Source: Escherichia phage Henu7. From it: 49,526 nucleotides of DNA. This document shows positions 1,109 to 41,238 of the stretch, one piece after another (within the stretch, counting starts at the first letter, position 1; each line of letters starts with the position of its first letter). The stretch lies in sequence record NC_054894.1. One strand, given 5' to 3'. Made by a program: the position numbers and the translations under genes. The notes under the pieces were generated by a model. That model had not been told where the DNA came from, searched no databases, and saw only the letters and a program-made list of their open reading frames with translations.

Positions 1109-2939
1109 TGGCAATCAATGCCGCAACCATAGCTTTCAACTCCTCAACCTCGCCCTCAAGTTTTGCGATCCTCTCCTTGTTCTCATCATCACGCGCACGC
1201 AATGCCTTAATGGCGGCCAGAGCATCCATCATCAGTGGGTTAAGGTCAAGCGTCACTTTCCCTACGCCCTCAGCAGAGTGAACATATTCCTTGTCGATTT
1301 GTTCGATCTGCTGAGCAATTACGCCACGGCGCTCTGTCTGTTCATCATCATCAAGATAGTAGAATCGCTTAAACTCCATTTGACAGATGTTTTCAAGAGA
1401 ATCAGCAACATCGAGATCGCCTTTGACGTGTTTAAAATTAATATCTGATGTTCCAACAGGCTGCATCTGTGTCCATGGAATGGTGGACGAAGGAGTATTC
1501 ATAGCAGCACTAGCCAGGTTCCGGACGAAAAGATTGCCGGATACTCCTGTAAATATTTGCTGTCGGCGCGCAGGGTCATACCCGCATACGATCCCTGATC
1601 CTGCTTGCGGAGCCCAGGCAGTACCAGAGTCGTCAACACCATAAAATCCTGATTCGGTACTTGCTAAAATATTAGTGCCTGGAGTTCCGAAACCAAAGTA
1701 TCCAACTCCTAAGACATTACCAATATTTGCGCCAACATCTTTGGTGGCGGCACTTCCCAAACCGAGGTTTGTGCGAGCGTCAGCAGCATTCTTTGCACCT
1801 GTACCGCCCTGATCAACGCCGAGAGGAATCCAACCAGACCCAAATCTATACAATCCCCAAGTGCTACCATTTGGAGTAATGAGAGCTTGCGCCCCGTCGG
1901 CTGACAATACCTTAGTTTCAGTTGTCGAATCTTGATTAAGTCTATCAACCTGTAGATTTGCTCTTGCGGTTGCCTTGTTCGCAACGTCTGACAGGTTATT
2001 AGCTTTCTTCAACTGGTTGTCAGGGTTAGCGCTAGCAGCTCTATCCGCCTCCGTTTTTGCCCGATCCGCTTGCTGAGTTGCCGTGGTAGCCGATGCCTCC
2101 GCAGCGGTTTTGCTTGATGCCGCATTAGTCTCTGACGTTTTGGCGTTAGTCTCTGACGTTTTTGCGTTAGTCTCTGACGTTTTGGCAGCAGTTGCAGATC
2201 CAGAAGCGGCGCTTGCAGAGTTAGCCGCCGCGCTTGCTGATGATGCCGCCGCCGTCTTGCTTGCATTTGCGTTTGTCTCGCTTGTTTTCGCAGCGCTGGC
2301 GCTAGCAGCCGCAGCATCCTTATGCTGGCTTGCGGTTGTCGCTGAGCTTGCCGCAGAACTAGCGGAGTTAGCCGCCGCCGTTTTGCTCGATGCCGCATTG
2401 TTCTCGCTGGTTTTTGCTGCACTTGCTGATGATGCCGCTGAGCTTGCTTGCTGGCTTGCGGTTGTTGCTGATGCAGCCGCCGCATTCTTGCTTGCGTTTG
2501 CGTTGCTTTCGCTTTGCGCCGCAGCTTTTGCGCTTGCGCCTGCTGCCAATTCGCTTGCCTTAGTATTTCGCTCAATTTCTTCAAGCTTTTGCCAATCAAA
2601 GCTTTTCAGGAAGTCAACAAACTCCTGATACATTGTTTCCTGACCCTGGTAATAACGCAGAGTTTCGGCAACATCTTGCGCCAGGCCGTCAACAGTGATT
2701 GAGTCATGAAGCAGGATCACGTAGTCTCCACGAGGAACTACCGCGCCGCCAGTAGACGTGGCACGCAGTGAGGTATCATTCACGATCTCGCTAATTGTTG
2801 CGTATGCAACCGGATTGGATGCAAACACGATTGTTGCACCTGGACGAATCAGCGTTAATGCTGTTTTCCACTTTGTTCCGTAACCAGTGATATAGCCGTT
2901 AGCGTCCATTGACGCTTGACCAGTGCGATAAATAGCCAT
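1104..2939 (-). CDS. tail fibre protein with C-terminal intramolecular chaperone (peptidase S74-like) domain
   Basis: Start chosen at ATG 2939 (MAIYRTGQ...) with GGGAG RBS; track start is an upstream GTG. Ala/Ser-rich repeat region (3x KTSETNA). C-terminal region FKHVKGDLDVADSLENICQMEFKRFYYLDDDEQ followed by a coiled coil resembles the endosialidase chaperone domain. Confidence 0.7.
   Translation of the reverse strand: MAIYRTGQASMDANGYITGYGTKWKTALTLIRPGATIVFASNPVAYATISEIVNDTSLRATSTGGAVVPRGDYVILLHDSITVDGLAQDVAETLRYYQGQETMYQEFVDFLKSFDWQKLEEIERNTKASELAAGASAKAAAQSESNANASKNAAAASATTASQQASSAASSASAAKTSENNAASSKTAAANSASSAASSATTASQHKDAAAASASAAKTSETNANASKTAAASSASAAANSASAASGSATAAKTSETNAKTSETNAKTSETNAASSKTAAEASATTATQQADRAKTEADRAASANPDNQLKKANNLSDVANKATARANLQVDRLNQDSTTETKVLSADGAQALITPNGSTWGLYRFGSGWIPLGVDQGGTGAKNAADARTNLGLGSAATKDVGANIGNVLGVGYFGFGTPGTNILASTESGFYGVDDSGTAWAPQAGSGIVCGYDPARRQQIFTGVSGNLFVRNLASAAMNTPSSTIPWTQMQPVGTSDINFKHVKGDLDVADSLENICQMEFKRFYYLDDDEQTERRGVIAQQIEQIDKEYVHSAEGVGKVTLDLNPLMMDALAAIKALRARDDENKERIAKLEGEVEELKAMVAALIAK
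2124..2188. repeat. 3 x 21-bp tandem repeat inside tail fibre gene (encodes KTSETNA repeats)
   Basis: CGTTAGTCTCTGACGTTTTG repeated three times head to tail; embedded in a wider low-complexity Ala/Ser-coding region about 2060..2530. Confidence 0.8.
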
Positions 2940-7081: not shown

Positions 7082-7360
7082 ATGAAAAAGATGTTATCAG
7101 TAGTTGCTTTATCGCTTTCCATTGTCGGTTGCATGGATAAACCAAAAGCATATATTTGCGGAAATGAAGTGTTTGAGGTTACAAGCGAATACATGAAAGT
7201 TGTAAAAGGTAAAAACACAGGCGTTGTAATGGATAATATCAGCAAAAATAAATACAAGCTGTTTACGCCAATTGGAACAGCTTTTTACACTGTTAACGAT
7301 AGCACAATTGATGTTAGAGTCGGAATCTTTCAGCACACTTTAACTTGCGAGGTGAAATAA
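7082..7360 (+). CDS. small lipoprotein (moron; candidate superinfection-exclusion protein)
   Basis: Signal peptide with lipobox LSIVGC; AT-rich codon usage relative to neighbours; own upstream regulatory unit. Confidence 0.6.
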   Translation: MKKMLSVVALSLSIVGCMDKPKAYICGNEVFEVTSEYMKVVKGKNTGVVMDNISKNKYKLFTPIGTAFYTVNDSTIDVRVGIFQHTLTCEVK

Positions 7361-7361
7361 A

Positions 7362-7498
7362 ATGGCTAAAGACATTCTGGACAACTCAACAATTGATGGT
7401 ATCGAGCAGGTTGATGAAATGGACTTTCACGAATTGCAGCACGGCAAGTATTCAGACATAGCCCTGCGCTCAGGCGGTCATTACCAGGCCGTGAAACC
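7362..7498 (+). CDS. ORF upstream of methyltransferase, probably its N-terminal part separated by an 8-bp tandem duplication
   Basis: Strong RBS GAGGTG before ATG 7362; reading frame runs to 7703; deleting one copy of ACAAGGTT (7510..7525) fuses it in frame to the methyltransferase. Confidence 0.4.
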
Positions 7499-8116
7499 AT
7501 GCCAGTATTACAAGGTTACAAGGTTACAGGCAACCGTTACGCCGGAAGCAACACTCCAGATGTTGTCCGTGACCTTTGGGCTACTCCGCGCGATGTTGTC
7601 GCGTATATGGAAAGCCGCTACGGTAAATATGATCTTGATGCTGCGGCTAGCGAGGACAATAAAGTCTGTGAAAAATTCTACAGCAAGGAAACAAACTGCT
7701 TAAAGCGTTGGTGGGGTAGCAAGAAGCACGTATGGCTGAATCCTCCATATTCGAATCCAGATCCGTTTGTGCTCAAGGCCATTGAGCAAATGGAGCACGA
7801 AAACCAGATCGACATATTGCTTCCAGCCGATAACTCAACGGCATGGTTTAGCGATGCGCAGAAACATGCTGCGGAAATCATCTGGATTACTGGCGAAACC
7901 TGGAAAGATGAAGAAGGGCGCGAATATTCCCGAACCGGACGATTAGCGTTTATTTCCGGCCTGACAGGTGAGCCAGTTAGCGGCAACAACAAAGGCAGTG
8001 TGATCTTTGTGATGCGCAAATTGAAAGAGGGAGAAACGCAACAAACTCACTACGTGAAAATCAGCGATATTTGCCCGTCTGTAAAAAACAAGCGAGCCAA
8101 AGCAAGGAGTTTTTAA
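7499..8116 (+). CDS. DNA N6-adenine methyltransferase (phage Dam-like)
   Basis: Motifs DLWATPRDV, DLDAAAS and NPPYS typical of phage Dam-family amino-methyltransferases; weak RBS at 7499. Confidence 0.7.
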   Translation: MPVLQGYKVTGNRYAGSNTPDVVRDLWATPRDVVAYMESRYGKYDLDAAASEDNKVCEKFYSKETNCLKRWWGSKKHVWLNPPYSNPDPFVLKAIEQMEHENQIDILLPADNSTAWFSDAQKHAAEIIWITGETWKDEEGREYSRTGRLAFISGLTGEPVSGNNKGSVIFVMRKLKEGETQQTHYVKISDICPSVKNKRAKARSF

Positions 8117-8226
8117 TGAAAGATGATATTTCAGCACTTGGAATGCTTTGTGCATTCATGATCGGCGGCGGTTTTTGTTCTTACGCGCTCATTGCGCTAA
8201 TCATCAAAATAGTGGAGTTGATTTAA
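8116..8226 (+). CDS. 36-aa hydrophobic membrane peptide
   Basis: AAGGAG RBS; ATG overlaps the methyltransferase stop (TAATG); sequence MKDDISALGMLCAFMIGGGFCSYALIALIIKIVELI; not in ORF track because of length. Confidence 0.45.
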   Translation: MKDDISALGMLCAFMIGGGFCSYALIALIIKIVELI

Positions 8227-8474
8227 TGGGCGAGAGAAATGTAACACTAAACGAGACTGGTTTATTTCTGCTGTATCGCGCAATGGTGTGCCAGGCTATT
8301 GACCTAAATCCACACATCAAGGATGTGATAGGGGTTGACCCGTGGGAGTTTTCCAGCGCTCTTGACATGAGCTTTGAGGAAACCGCAAATCTACCTCTTG
8401 AGAAGTGGCACATCAAGATTGCTGATGATCTAGGTGAAATGTGGCAAGATCTTAAAAAGCGAGCGTCTCACTAA
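8226..8474 (+). CDS. hypothetical protein
   Basis: ATG 8226 overlaps upstream stop (TAATG), GGAG RBS; track ORF 8148..8474 trimmed to this start. Confidence 0.5.
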   Translation: MGERNVTLNETGLFLLYRAMVCQAIDLNPHIKDVIGVDPWEFSSALDMSFEETANLPLEKWHIKIADDLGEMWQDLKKRASH

Positions 8475-8493
8475 ATAGCACTTTTGGTTAAAA
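8475..8493 (+). promoter_or_regulatory. palindromic element (degenerate right half) plus hairpin
   Basis: ATAGCACTTTTGGTTAAAA, hairpin ATGCCCGACTAAAGTCGGGCAT, ATAAT, leader CCAACGAAAACC. Confidence 0.4.
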
Positions 8494-8550
8494 ATGCCCG
8501 ACTAAAGTCGGGCATAATCATTTCCAACGAAAACCACTGAGGAAAACGAA

Positions 8551-8760
8551 ATGAAAATCTACAGCAAAGCAGCCATGGAAATTGCACAGCAAGCAGCACG
8601 CGAGGCCGTTGAGTTGGGCGTTGTCGGCGGTGGCGACCTTGATTGGGCTGCGGCTATGATTTGGCTGAAAATCGCAACCGGACACGCGCCAGTTTTCAAG
8701 TATGAGGAGCGCGGAATTCGTTCAATCGTCGCGTCGATGGAGGGCAAAGATGAAGGTTGA
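8551..8760 (+). CDS. hypothetical protein
   Basis: ORF with RBS GAGGAAAACGAA immediately upstream; follows regulatory unit. Confidence 0.5.
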   Translation: MKIYSKAAMEIAQQAAREAVELGVVGGGDLDWAAAMIWLKIATGHAPVFKYEERGIRSIVASMEGKDEG

Positions 8761-8998
8761 GCAAGGCCGCGAGGCCGTTTGGAATCACGCCAAAGAAACC
8801 GGAATGGCAGACGATATAGCACGAATTGCTAAAATCTTTGATCTGGCTGATGTTAGCATTATCAGCAACGGGAAAATGACTTACTTGCACGAGAGGCCGC
8901 GCAAAATGCATCGCGTTCCAGCAATCCCGACAAAAATCGACTTCAAAGAAGCAATGGAAAAAATTAGAGAGCCGAAAAAGTATTACAAAGGAGAATAG
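8750..8998 (+). CDS. hypothetical protein
   Basis: ATG 8750 with GGAGGG RBS, overlapping the end of the upstream ORF. Confidence 0.45.
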   Translation: MKVEQGREAVWNHAKETGMADDIARIAKIFDLADVSIISNGKMTYLHERPRKMHRVPAIPTKIDFKEAMEKIREPKKYYKGE

Positions 8999-9092
8999 TT
9001 ATCATGTGGCGCTTGCTTGTTCTTCCAATGCCCGTTATCATTGCCGCCGTTGTTATGTACGCACTTGTTATGTGATTTAAGAGGAAAAATTA

Positions 9093-10211
9093 ATGATTCA
9101 GAAAATGACAGACCAGCAGTTTAAAGACGCACGAGCGGAGGGTAAAACCTACAAGCAGATCGCGGAGGAATTTGGCTTGAATGTTCGCACAGTTGAGCGA
9201 CGAGCGGCAAACCTTGCTCGCAAGGGTGAGACTGACGCGAAAGGCGCTCCAGGTTTTGCGGTTGTTCGCGAGTCAGTCCTTACGCGTGCGAACGGCGAGG
9301 AAGTTATGCGCTGGACTATCACCAACAAGGATAAAGAGCAGTTGGAGGCATTAATGCAAGCCGCTATGGAAGCATTCGCAGAGGAAGTGCCACGCCTTGA
9401 TCCTCAGCCTGAAAGCCGCAAAGACTACAGCGAGAGCCTAGCGCTATACCCAATCTTTGATATGCACATTGGCGCAATGGCTCACAAGCATGAGTGTGGT
9501 GAGAATTGGGATACGGCAACAGCCGAAAATGTCATGAATGACTTCTTTGATTATGCGGTTGAGTGTGCGCCAAATAGCGAGAAAGCCGTGCTCCTGATTG
9601 GTGGAGATATGCTTCACAGTGACGGCCTTGAGGCTGTAACACCTGCCAGCGGTCACGTTCTGGATCAGGATAGCCGCTACGCCAAACTTGTTTATGTCGC
9701 AATCCGAGCAACGCGCCGCGCTATCTCCTTGATGTTGACCAAGCACAAAGAGGTTGAAATTCAGGTGATCGAGGGCAATCATGACCAATCAGGCATGATC
9801 TGGCTACGCGCAGCAATGGCTGCGGCATACGAAAACGAGCCACGAGTTACGGTTGATGTTTCTCCCCGCGTGGTGCATCACACGCAGTACGGAAAAACCT
9901 TCCTCGCGTATCATCACGGTCACACCGTGCGCAAGCCTGAAACGTTATTGATGATGTGTGCGGCAGATTGGCGCGAGGATTTTGGCAAATCAAAATCAAT
10001 GTATGCTCATGTAGGCCATTGGCATCACCAGACCGTAACAGAAACCAGCCTGGGGATTGTTGAAGTTCACAGCACTATGGCGGCTAAAGATGCGTATGCG
10101 GCACGCGGCGGCTGGCGCTCTCGTCGTCGCGCGGCGGTTATCATCTACGACAAAGAGCACGGCGAGATCGGGAGATTTATGTTCTACCCTGAAATGATGG
10201 AGTCAAAATAA
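9093..10211 (+). CDS. HTH domain fused to calcineurin-like metallophosphoesterase
   Basis: N-terminal HTH YKQIAEEFGLNVRTVERR; metallophosphoesterase motifs DMHIG, GGDMLHSDG, GNHD, HHGH, GHWHH; RBS AAGAGGA. Confidence 0.6.
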   Translation: MIQKMTDQQFKDARAEGKTYKQIAEEFGLNVRTVERRAANLARKGETDAKGAPGFAVVRESVLTRANGEEVMRWTITNKDKEQLEALMQAAMEAFAEEVPRLDPQPESRKDYSESLALYPIFDMHIGAMAHKHECGENWDTATAENVMNDFFDYAVECAPNSEKAVLLIGGDMLHSDGLEAVTPASGHVLDQDSRYAKLVYVAIRATRRAISLMLTKHKEVEIQVIEGNHDQSGMIWLRAAMAAAYENEPRVTVDVSPRVVHHTQYGKTFLAYHHGHTVRKPETLLMMCAADWREDFGKSKSMYAHVGHWHHQTVTETSLGIVEVHSTMAAKDAYAARGGWRSRRRAAVIIYDKEHGEIGRFMFYPEMMESK

Positions 10212-10381: not shown

Positions 10382-10403
10382 CATTTAACTTCATGAGCTT
10401 ACA

Positions 10404-10434
10404 AAGGGTTAGCATTTGCTAGCCCTTTTTTTAT
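10404..10434 (+). terminator. intrinsic terminator
   Basis: Hairpin GGGTTAGCATTTGCTAGCCC followed by TTTTTTT; the stem itself contains a TAGCA...TGCTA palindrome. Confidence 0.75.
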
Positions 10435-10508
10435 TGTTTTGTTTTTACTCGTTGCTGGTTAACATACACACACTTGACTATTGACATTTAAAACAAGGAG
10501 ATCAGATT

Positions 10509-10724
10509 ATGAGAGAATTTTTAAACGCAGCTACCACCAGCACCGGAGGCGCGTCACTGGCTGGAGCGGCAACAGGTCAAATTACAATTGCGGTTGCTGG
10601 CCTTGTACTTATGGCTGCCTTTGGATTTTGGGGCGCTTACTTGCGCTGGAAAGATAGCAAGGCGCTGCGAGAGGCTTTGGATCGTGAAGATATCAAAGAG
10701 GCAATTCGAATCAGGGGGAAATAA
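10509..10724 (+). CDS. holin (probable pinholin)
   Basis: 71 aa with one strongly hydrophobic segment [21 protein letters not shown] and charged C-terminus; immediately upstream of endolysin; RBS AAGGAG. Confidence 0.6.
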
Positions 10725-21708: not shown

Positions 21709-21723
21709 CACTTTTTGCTAAAG
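21705..21723 (+). promoter_or_regulatory. palindromic element plus hairpin containing TATAGT (module copy A)
   Basis: ATAGCACTTTTTGCTAAAG, hairpin GAGGCCATTGG-TATAGT-GGCCTC, leader TTGAAAGCAACCAA. Confidence 0.45.
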
Positions 21724-21786
21724 ACTTTCCGCGAGGCCATTGGTATAGTGGCCTCATTGAAAGCAACCAATCAAAAGGAAAACGAA

Positions 21787-22122
21787 ATGAAATTAGTTCG
21801 CAATGCGGTGTATGGCCTGGAAACAAGCGGCGGAATGATCCAGGTTTTTCATGTGGCAAACAACGGACACATTCAGATCGCGATGTATCGTGACGCTCGC
21901 GGCGCTTGCCAGCCTGGTTATAGTGGCGAAGTGCGAATGATGTTCAGCATGATTCAGCGGCAAGCTGATCACATCAATAACCACGATCACTGGATCGAAG
22001 ATCTCAAACGCAAAGGTGTGATGATAGCAAGTCACGTTATAGACCCGATGAAGCTCACCTCTCGCGACTATCGCGAAATGGCGAGAAAGGCAGCAAAGAA
22101 ACTGAATATCACGAATTGCTAA
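21787..22122 (+). CDS. hypothetical protein
   Basis: Start ATG 21787 with RBS AAAGGAAAACGAA; the longer track ORF reads through the regulatory unit. Confidence 0.5.
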   Translation: MKLVRNAVYGLETSGGMIQVFHVANNGHIQIAMYRDARGACQPGYSGEVRMMFSMIQRQADHINNHDHWIEDLKRKGVMIASHVIDPMKLTSRDYREMARKAAKKLNITNC

Positions 22123-40485: not shown

Positions 40486-41238
40486 ATGGCTACAGGTAAA
40501 GAAGAATTTGAGAACTGCTTACAGAGCCTTTACCCTGGCGAGATCATGACACTGGTAGAGGTTGACGGTACAAAGTTTGGCGCTGGCGTTTACCGATTCC
40601 ATAATGAGAATGTGCAATACACGCCGGAGGAGATCATGAAAGCGGTTGAGAGCGGCACGCTACCGCCAAAGGAGATTATCTTCCAGGGTGAGGCATACGG
40701 AGCGCGTCCTTTCGGAATTACTGGTATCAGCTTTACAAGTGACGGCAAAGCCGGAAAGCCGGAACTAACACTGTCAAACATTGACAGCCAGGTATCGGCA
40801 TTGATTCGTGCTTACAACGGCATGATGCAAGCAAAGGTCACAATATGGGTCACGTCAAAAGAAATGATTCAGAGTGACGGCAGCGTAAAAGACGGCGCTT
40901 ATCGCAAGCTTGTCTACTACGTCGAGCGCCCTAGCTACTGCAATAAGAGCATAGCCAGATTCGAGCTAACCTCTCCATATGATATGGATGGAATAATGAT
41001 CCCGCCACGAATCACTCAAAGCGTTTGCTATTGGGCGCAACGTGGATGGTATCGAAGCGGAAAGGGTTGCAGCTACAACGGATCGCGAATGTTCGACAAG
41101 GACAATAACCCTGTAACAGATCCGAGCCTTGACCAATGCGCGGGAACAGTAACGGCCTGTAAGTTGCGTTTTGGCGCGGATCAAGAGTTAGATTTTGGCG
41201 GCTGCGCAGTCGCATCACTTTTAAGGAGCTACCAATGA
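40486..41238 (+). CDS. minor tail protein (lambda L-like)
   Basis: RBS AAGGAGG before ATG 40486; C-terminal Cys cluster (possible Fe-S site as in lambda L). Confidence 0.6.
   Translation: MATGKEEFENCLQSLYPGEIMTLVEVDGTKFGAGVYRFHNENVQYTPEEIMKAVESGTLPPKEIIFQGEAYGARPFGITGISFTSDGKAGKPELTLSNIDSQVSALIRAYNGMMQAKVTIWVTSKEMIQSDGSVKDGAYRKLVYYVERPSYCNKSIARFELTSPYDMDGIMIPPRITQSVCYWAQRGWYRSGKGCSYNGSRMFDKDNNPVTDPSLDQCAGTVTACKLRFGADQELDFGGCAVASLLRSYQ

Follow-up and report, generated by a model that had tools for sequence, protein, structure and literature searches.

Two predicted membrane micropeptide genes in Escherichia phage Henu7, one retained across T1-like phages and mostly unannotated

KdpF (29 amino acids [aa]), MgtS (31 aa), CydX (37 aa), MgrB (47 aa), and AcrZ (49 aa) are bacterial inner-membrane regulatory proteins that bind a larger membrane protein and are specified by short open reading frames (sORFs), which annotation pipelines often miss. 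The type I toxin peptides include IbsC (19 aa), ShoB (26 aa), TisB (29 aa), and LdrD (35 aa). For phages, Fremin et al. 2022 (Cell Rep) reportedly predicted small-gene families from sORFs of <50 codons, many of them with predicted transmembrane segments. In this study, we analyzed a 49,526-nucleotide (nt) stretch of Escherichia phage Henu7 (NC_054894.1), referred to below as the window, and focused on two open reading frames (ORFs) in it, the 36-aa ORF A and the 23-aa ORF B. Like KdpF, MgtS, CydX, AcrZ, and MgrB, the two predicted peptides fall between 20 and 50 residues, amount to essentially one transmembrane helix, and have no soluble domain; unlike those proteins, they are encoded by a phage and show no detectable sequence relationship to them, and their binding to a partner is something that we infer. 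They share very short length and strong hydrophobicity with IbsC, ShoB, TisB, and LdrD but differ in lacking an antisense RNA, a match to a toxin family, and a repressive 5' leader, and in being embedded in operons with a strong Shine-Dalgarno sequence (SD) and coupled translation. T1/N15 Cor, T4 Imm and Sp, HK97 gp15, and the holins and antiholins are likewise phage-encoded and alter the behavior of the envelope; however, they are larger (~60 to 200 aa) and carry extramembrane parts or lipoprotein signals, unlike ORF A and ORF B, and ORF B further departs from exclusion and lysis-control proteins in being core to the T1 family and not moron-like. Both ORFs resemble the families of Fremin et al. 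2022 as conserved phage sORFs of <50 codons, and neither is in PHROGs or Pfam. Neither peptide matched an entry in Pfam, PHROGs, NCBIfam, PADLOC, or PDB. The PDB matches were at chance level, and the best of them, PsbY, a one-helix accessory subunit (E = 0.38, 14 bits, not significant), has a superficially similar N-terminal M-x-W-R-hydrophobic-L-P pattern that does not support a relationship. For the superinfection-exclusion families (Cor/Imm/Sie), we obtained no PHROG or Pfam match, and neither ORF contains a lipobox.

The original prediction had proposed, from the sequence alone, a hydrophobic 36-aa peptide and a possible 23-aa one, each with a plausible ribosome binding site, and we found both ORFs exactly as it had placed them, each preceded by the SD AAGGAG (Table 1). 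We filtered both strands of the window for ATG-initiated ORFs of 18 to 45 aa whose best 18-residue Kyte-Doolittle mean reached 2.0 or more and whose SD match covered 4 nt or more at a spacing of 4 to 12 nt. Three ORFs passed in the 49.5-kb window, ORF A and ORF B among them, both with a 6-nt SD, compared to 0.2 ± 0.4 in Markov-random sequence of matched composition. The third (21851..21940, + strand, 29 aa) lies out of frame within the ORF at 21715..22122 and is probably spurious. The proposed hydrophobicity was borne out, with best 18-residue means of 2.09 for ORF A and 2.56 for ORF B, and on this simple scale each peptide is predicted to be hydrophobic enough for one transmembrane helix.

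The variation among relatives follows the proposed reading frames. For ORF A, the ratio of nonsynonymous to synonymous polymorphism (pN/pS) was 0.31 in frame, whereas the two shifted frames gave 1.17 and 1.79; variable sites at codon positions 1, 2, and 3 numbered 19, 11, and 27 (ten ungapped unique sequences, taken from eleven collected). The corresponding values for ORF B were 0.38 versus 0.67 and 2.1, with 11, 8, and 18 variable sites, among 17 unique MWRL-type sequences chosen by a lenient peptide pattern, which favors the true frame somewhat. Given this frame-specific purifying selection and the conservation of both the initiation signals and the synteny, ORF A and ORF B are, on comparative evidence, genuine protein-coding genes, as had been supposed. 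We regard it as very probable that both are real, translated membrane-peptide genes.

ORF B encodes MWRLLVLPMPVIIAAVVMYALVM, with its ATG at 9004-9006 and its TGA stop at 9073-9075. Nearly all of the T1-like loci among 80 that we fetched via the downstream exonuclease hold a hydrophobic ORF of 21 to 29 aa in the same gap. As an unbiased check, we scanned all 24,725 stop-to-stop segments of every sequence gathered with a hidden Markov model (HMM) of the ORF B family. In 56 of 57 T1-like sequences, this model gave exactly one significant match, which lay at the syntenic site; it matched none of the 38 mEp021-like loci and nothing elsewhere in the window or in the whole T1 genome. Searches by tblastn with three sequence types recovered 140, 70, and 54 phage records. 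ORF B remained open and recognizable where the DNA could no longer be aligned, as in T1 (MKLYFAVVLTPLISFSVMYFIIM), Stevie (MRYISVILLPPVIAWVIMYAVVMN), and the ESCO41 type (MRCLIAVLLPPITGFIIIYLITR). The T1 copy lies at 40740-40811 between genes 17 and 16, and its ATG overlaps the gene-17 stop. By this distribution, ORF B belongs to the core genes of T1-like phages and is conserved across Drexlerviridae about as well as the surrounding replication genes. The consensus reads M-x-x-x-F-x-x-x-L-P-P-x-I-A-x-x-x-M-Y-x-x-V-M; in it, Tyr19 never varies, conservation extends to Pro10, Met18, Met23, and a small residue at position 14, and most variants have a basic residue at position 2 or 3 and Pro or Pro-Pro near position 10. 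ORF B was also contained in the T1-like sequence of 17 records (MG0656xx, "Campylobacter phage ...") that are labelled as Campylobacter jejuni phages, and the host labels or cultures of these records may be wrong.

We considered that the two ORFs could be chance, nonfunctional frames kept open by DNA conservation or by a signal at the DNA or RNA level. Both are very short, ORF B is broken in two relatives (described below), and its DNA is 97 to 98% identical among the closest relatives, which on their own therefore say little about it. Against this stand the frame-specific selection on both ORFs, the retention of ORF B across lineages with unalignable DNA, and the 3 ORFs observed where 0.2 would be expected per window. 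We also found no promoter-like or terminator-like site inside either ORF, and neither came near the gathering score of an Rfam family, the weak matches all lying on terminator hairpins elsewhere. The mRNA over ORF B was less structured than 200 of 200 shuffles (z = +2.58), the ORF A region was ordinary (z = +0.88), and no consensus RNA structure emerged across nine diverged lineages. An RNA element was thus rejected, given that there was no stable fold, no nine-lineage consensus, and no Rfam family, and the chance explanation as a whole appears extremely improbable.

ORF A encodes MKDDISALGMLCAFMIGGGFCSYALIALIIKIVELI (ATG at 8116-8118, stop TAA at 8224-8226), and its SD is AAGGAG or GAGGAG in every relative aligned. 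Distant versions occur in Salmonella phage PMBT35 and at loci L017, L019, L027, and L042. They are hydrophobic, 36 to 37 aa long, and share the core G-[G/S/A]-G-F-C-S-[Y/A/F]-A followed by K..E, so that the middle of the predicted helix holds a conserved motif of small residues with Cys-Ser, G-[G/S]-G-F-C-S. Codon 33 (8212..8214) specifies Val (GTG) in the window and Gly33 in the closest relatives, which are all of the ...K-[IV]-G-E-[LF]-I type. ORF A was missing from Hanrivervirus, Warwickvirus, Tlsvirus, and T1, where dam directly adjoins the next gene, and an exhaustive HMMER scan of 1.84 billion representatives returned only one other 50%-identity cluster. Because of this absence from several genera and the single other cluster, ORF A is, as far as its known relatives indicate, a narrow, accessory, lineage-restricted micro-gene.

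Both ORFs are tightly packed against their neighbors. The dam stop TAA (8114-8116) gives its last A to the ATG of ORF A, and the final A of the ORF A stop is the first base of the next gene's ATG at 8226, each junction reading TAATG. The TAG of the gene upstream of ORF B (8996-8998) ends 5 nt before the ORF B ATG, and in T1, Stevie, and the 29-aa variants, the ORF B start is coupled instead via an ATGA overlap with the stop of that gene. Downstream, the exonuclease SD (AAGAGGA) begins 3 nt past the ORF B stop, and in most lineages the ORF B stop is a TAA that itself belongs to the exonuclease SD (TAAGGAG). These arrangements could mean that the ORFs are cis-acting spacers or leader peptides of which only the translation matters, with ORF B tuning the exonuclease and ORF A coupling dam to the next gene. 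However, the peptide sequences evolve under purifying selection, ORF B has an invariant Tyr as well as conserved positions for Pro and Met, and neither an alternative nor a conserved RNA structure was found. For ORF A, dam is joined directly to the next gene without it in many lineages; in all of the distant versions that do carry ORF A, the overlapping stops and starts between dam and the phrog_2676 gene are retained. For ORF B, the gene orders of relatives argue for action in trans. In Tls, an HNH homing-endonuclease gene lies between ORF B and the exonuclease (locus L040, 1935..2488), and ORF B is intact despite this separation; in LL5 (locus L041) and CF1 DK-2017 (locus L046), the HNH gene is instead upstream of ORF B; and mEp021-like temperate phages have a 65%-identical exonuclease without ORF B. 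A pure leader role for ORF B is unlikely for these three reasons, and we consider the cis-acting explanation for the two ORFs together to be very improbable. The HNH genes flank ORF B and never split it and, thus, treat it as a discrete gene unit.

The original prediction had also described both peptides as missed by annotation. As far as public records are concerned, this was right for ORF B, which is unannotated in Henuseptimavirus, T1, Tls, and Stevie, the last despite careful annotation at the level of ribosome binding sites. It did not hold for ORF A, which is called as a 111-nt hypothetical coding sequence (CDS) in every annotated close relative; IsaakIselin bas10_0038, for example, is near-identical to the ORF A protein. 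Gene callers commonly apply a minimum of 90 nt, and the 23 codons of ORF B fall below that limit, which explains why it is absent from the T1, Tls, Stevie, and Henuseptimavirus records. Accordingly with this limit, none of the 23- to 26-aa variants (72 to 81 nt) was present in a 15-billion-protein collection, whereas 29-aa variants (90 nt), extended by an additional in-frame ATG five codons upstream, are listed as "hypothetical protein" (e.g., CAK6597150, URY10757, and QZI81357). In tonnikala (NC_049817; locus L009, 1603..2799) and many Warwickvirus records, ORF B is engulfed by an over-long CDS annotated as "DNA repair exonuclease / phosphoesterase," whose start, 2 nt after the peptide ATG, is misplaced upstream by ~81 nt. 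We rejected an ORF B-exonuclease fusion: the long CDS runs in the exonuclease frame, where pN/pS is 2.1, and a stop closes that frame in the window. Given this ratio and this stop, the long CDS is an annotation artefact with an over-extended start, and recognizing ORF B corrects such starts in several RefSeq records. ORF B is thus an example of the systematic under-annotation of small membrane peptides, a conserved and mostly unannotated core micro-gene of Drexlerviridae, and with ORF A, already annotated in relatives, it adds two families to the catalogue of small proteins. We found no data on expression, timing of expression, essentiality, or function in the literature for the small genes of T1-like phages; two preprints on genome-wide essentiality do not include Drexlerviridae, and the relevant passages of the 2024 TLS re-annotation paper do not discuss ORF B.

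Our best overall explanation, to which we give an even chance, is that two separate micro-genes, ORF A and ORF B, are translated and that their products would act as membrane helices that bind a larger membrane protein. Each peptide, as essentially one transmembrane helix, would be inserted in the host inner membrane during infection, with the N terminus of ORF B likely inside because of Arg3. Given that neither peptide has a soluble domain, any activity would lie inside the bilayer. There, helix-helix binding to a larger host or phage membrane protein could alter the activity or stability of that partner, a mechanism modelled on KdpF, AcrZ, MgtS, and CydX that we put forward tentatively, as possible but somewhat short of probable. 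ORF B would most likely serve a general step of the infection cycle, since it is a core gene of the T1 family. For ORF A, a conditional role, such as the exclusion of competing phages or the countering of a membrane-based host defense, is more likely because it is a lineage-restricted accessory gene. The conservation of ORF B shows helical periodicity (peak at ~85 degrees per residue, permutation p ~0.03), and positions 10, 11, 14, 18, and 22 fall within one helical arc, which is weak but consistent evidence for a possible packing face. The mid-helix motif of small residues in ORF A would likewise suit a packing interface. If either peptide does bind a host membrane protein, it could become a compact tool or inhibitor, and ORF B is in any case a short candidate, easy to synthesize and mutate, for studying the action of T1-like phages on the inner membrane of the host.

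The main rival to this partner-binding explanation is a non-specific depolarizing action. As membrane-perturbing, toxin-like peptides in the manner of Ibs, ShoB, and TisB, ORF A and ORF B would oligomerize in or disorder the inner membrane, collapse the proton-motive force, and aid host shut-off. Their length and extreme hydrophobicity do resemble those of Ibs and ShoB, and ORF B is conserved across the whole family. Keweloh and Bakker (1984) are said to have found that the permeability of the E. coli inner membrane changes early after T1 infection. That early change is, however, usually ascribed to DNA entry (PMC13407855). Neither peptide matched a curated toxin family in NCBIfam or Pfam, and near the two ORFs we found neither a family of antisense RNAs nor a promoter-like site on the minus strand. 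The ORFs are also part of ordinary operons, where they have strong SDs and are translationally coupled, as opposed to the tight repression typical of type I toxins, and the one-sided conservation and invariant Tyr19 of ORF B suggest specific packing. We therefore consider toxin-like action unlikely, though less so than the other alternatives. Among the roles raised by the original prediction (modulation of host membrane proteins, exclusion, or toxin-like action), our analyses singled out none decisively.

Several points weigh against specific partner binding. The periodicity of ORF B, computed over 20 positions, is weak and peaks at 85 degrees instead of 100. Very hydrophobic peptides can act on membranes non-specifically. 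Neither peptide has homology to a characterized small membrane protein in the five databases searched, and we found no experimental support for translation, membrane insertion, or a partner of either one. Finally, two relatives have a broken ORF B: CF1 DK-2017 (locus L046, ~2407..2481) has a TAT-to-TAA nonsense change at codon 3, and at locus L047 (~2399..2470) a frameshift puts the conserved C-terminal ...IMYAVIMS in another frame. ORF B may be dispensable in culture, or else the two broken copies may be sequencing errors. A bolder version of the partner-binding explanation would make ORF B a family-wide effector of 21 to 29 residues that hits a conserved enterobacterial inner-membrane machine or energetic state and is needed for normal infection. 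We consider this improbable, more so than toxin-like action; if it were true, ORF B would be among the smallest conserved phage effectors and would have gone unannotated in the classical T1 genome.

The window is a T1-like siphophage of Drexlerviridae, similar to Henuseptimavirus. Between 7400 and 9400, it is 90 to 93.5% identical to Henuseptimavirus phages, namely, Enterobacter phage AS5, Escherichia phages IsaakIselin (Bas10) and JohannLBurckhardt (Bas11), and Klebsiella phage Samwise. The + strand reads, in order, helicase, VRR-NUC nuclease, a 92-aa lipoprotein, Dam methylase, ORF A, the 82-aa phrog_2676 gene, a hairpin, a 69-aa gene (phrog_2180), the 82-aa phrog_2817 gene, ORF B, the helix-turn-helix (HTH)-metallophosphoesterase gene (phrog_704), called the exonuclease above, and a 56-aa DUF7244 gene, followed by a terminator-like hairpin, a promoter-like site, and the holin, endolysin, and spanin genes. 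Both ORFs are thus surrounded by DNA-metabolism genes (helicase, VRR-NUC, Dam, and HTH-metallophosphoesterase) upstream of the lysis cassette (Table 1); the original prediction had called the neighboring genes early.

Table 1. Positions of ORF A, ORF B, their Shine-Dalgarno sequences, and the adjoining genes in the window
Feature	Position	Strand	Remarks
Dam methyltransferase gene	7362..8116	+	Directly 5' of ORF A; frameshifted here by an 8-bp tandem duplication
SD of ORF A (AAGGAG)	8104..8109	+	Read from the sequence; 6 nt before the ATG
ORF A, gene for a 36-aa predicted single-pass membrane micropeptide	8116..8226	+	Core G-F-C-S-[Y/A/F]-A, K..E tail
82-aa gene, phrog_2676, family of unknown function	8226..8474	+	ATG overlaps the ORF A stop
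82-aa gene, phrog_2817, family of unknown function, counterpart of T1 gene 17	8750..8998	+	Directly 5' of ORF B
SD of ORF B (AAGGAG)	8988..8993	+	Lies in the final codons of the gene upstream; spacing to the ATG, 10 nt
ORF B, gene for a 23-aa predicted single-pass membrane micropeptide	9004..9075	+	Core gene of T1-like phages by distribution; Tyr19 invariant
HTH + metallophosphoesterase gene, annotated "DNA repair exonuclease," phrog_704, counterpart of T1 gene 16	9093..10211	+	Directly 3' of ORF B; SD at 9079-9085

This layout raised a further alternative, that the peptides regulate the timing of lysis, as antiholin-like or holin-modulating factors of a pinholin and signal-arrest-release (SAR) endolysin system ~1.4 kb downstream. 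Both are predicted membrane peptides encoded on the same strand upstream of the holin (10509..10724), endolysin, and spanin genes, and, according to the Stevie annotation and a published account (PMC11447400), T1-type phages use a pinholin and a SAR endolysin under membrane-based control. However, a strong terminator-like hairpin (10403-10428) and a promoter-like site (10481-10510) divide the exonuclease operon from the cassette, and a lysis role is not favored because of this separation. Neither peptide matched a holin or antiholin in PHROGs or Pfam, and neither has the charged C-terminal tail typical of holins, ORF B ending in hydrophobic residues. We consider a role in lysis timing highly doubtful, about on a par with the cis-acting explanation. 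The hairpin has an 11-bp stem and a T-run, and the promoter-like site reads TTGACA / 18 nt / GATTAT; since both directly precede the holin gene, they suggest that the lysis cassette is a separate transcription unit.

Three of the neighboring genes have features of their own. In dam, an 8-bp tandem duplication at 7508..7528 (unit TTACAAGG) is present in 2.6 copies, compared to 1.6 in AS5, IsaakIselin, and Samwise, and the resulting frameshift leaves the gene in two parts, 7362..7703 and 7499..8116. Either the variant is truly dam-null or the assembly is in error. In the exonuclease, an HTH at the N terminus (Sigma70_r4_2, E = 1.2e-5, residues 14 to 38) is followed by a weak metallophosphoesterase match, an unusual pairing of DNA-binding and phosphoesterase domains. 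The 92-aa ORF (7082..7360, + strand; phrog_7420) carries a lipoprotein signal with a lipobox (MKKMLSVVALSLSIVGC...) and matches the Cor superinfection-exclusion protein only weakly and only at the N terminus (E = 0.016). It is kept in AS5 and IsaakIselin and missing from Samwise and JohannLBurckhardt, and given this patchy presence among the four relatives, it looks like an accessory moron.

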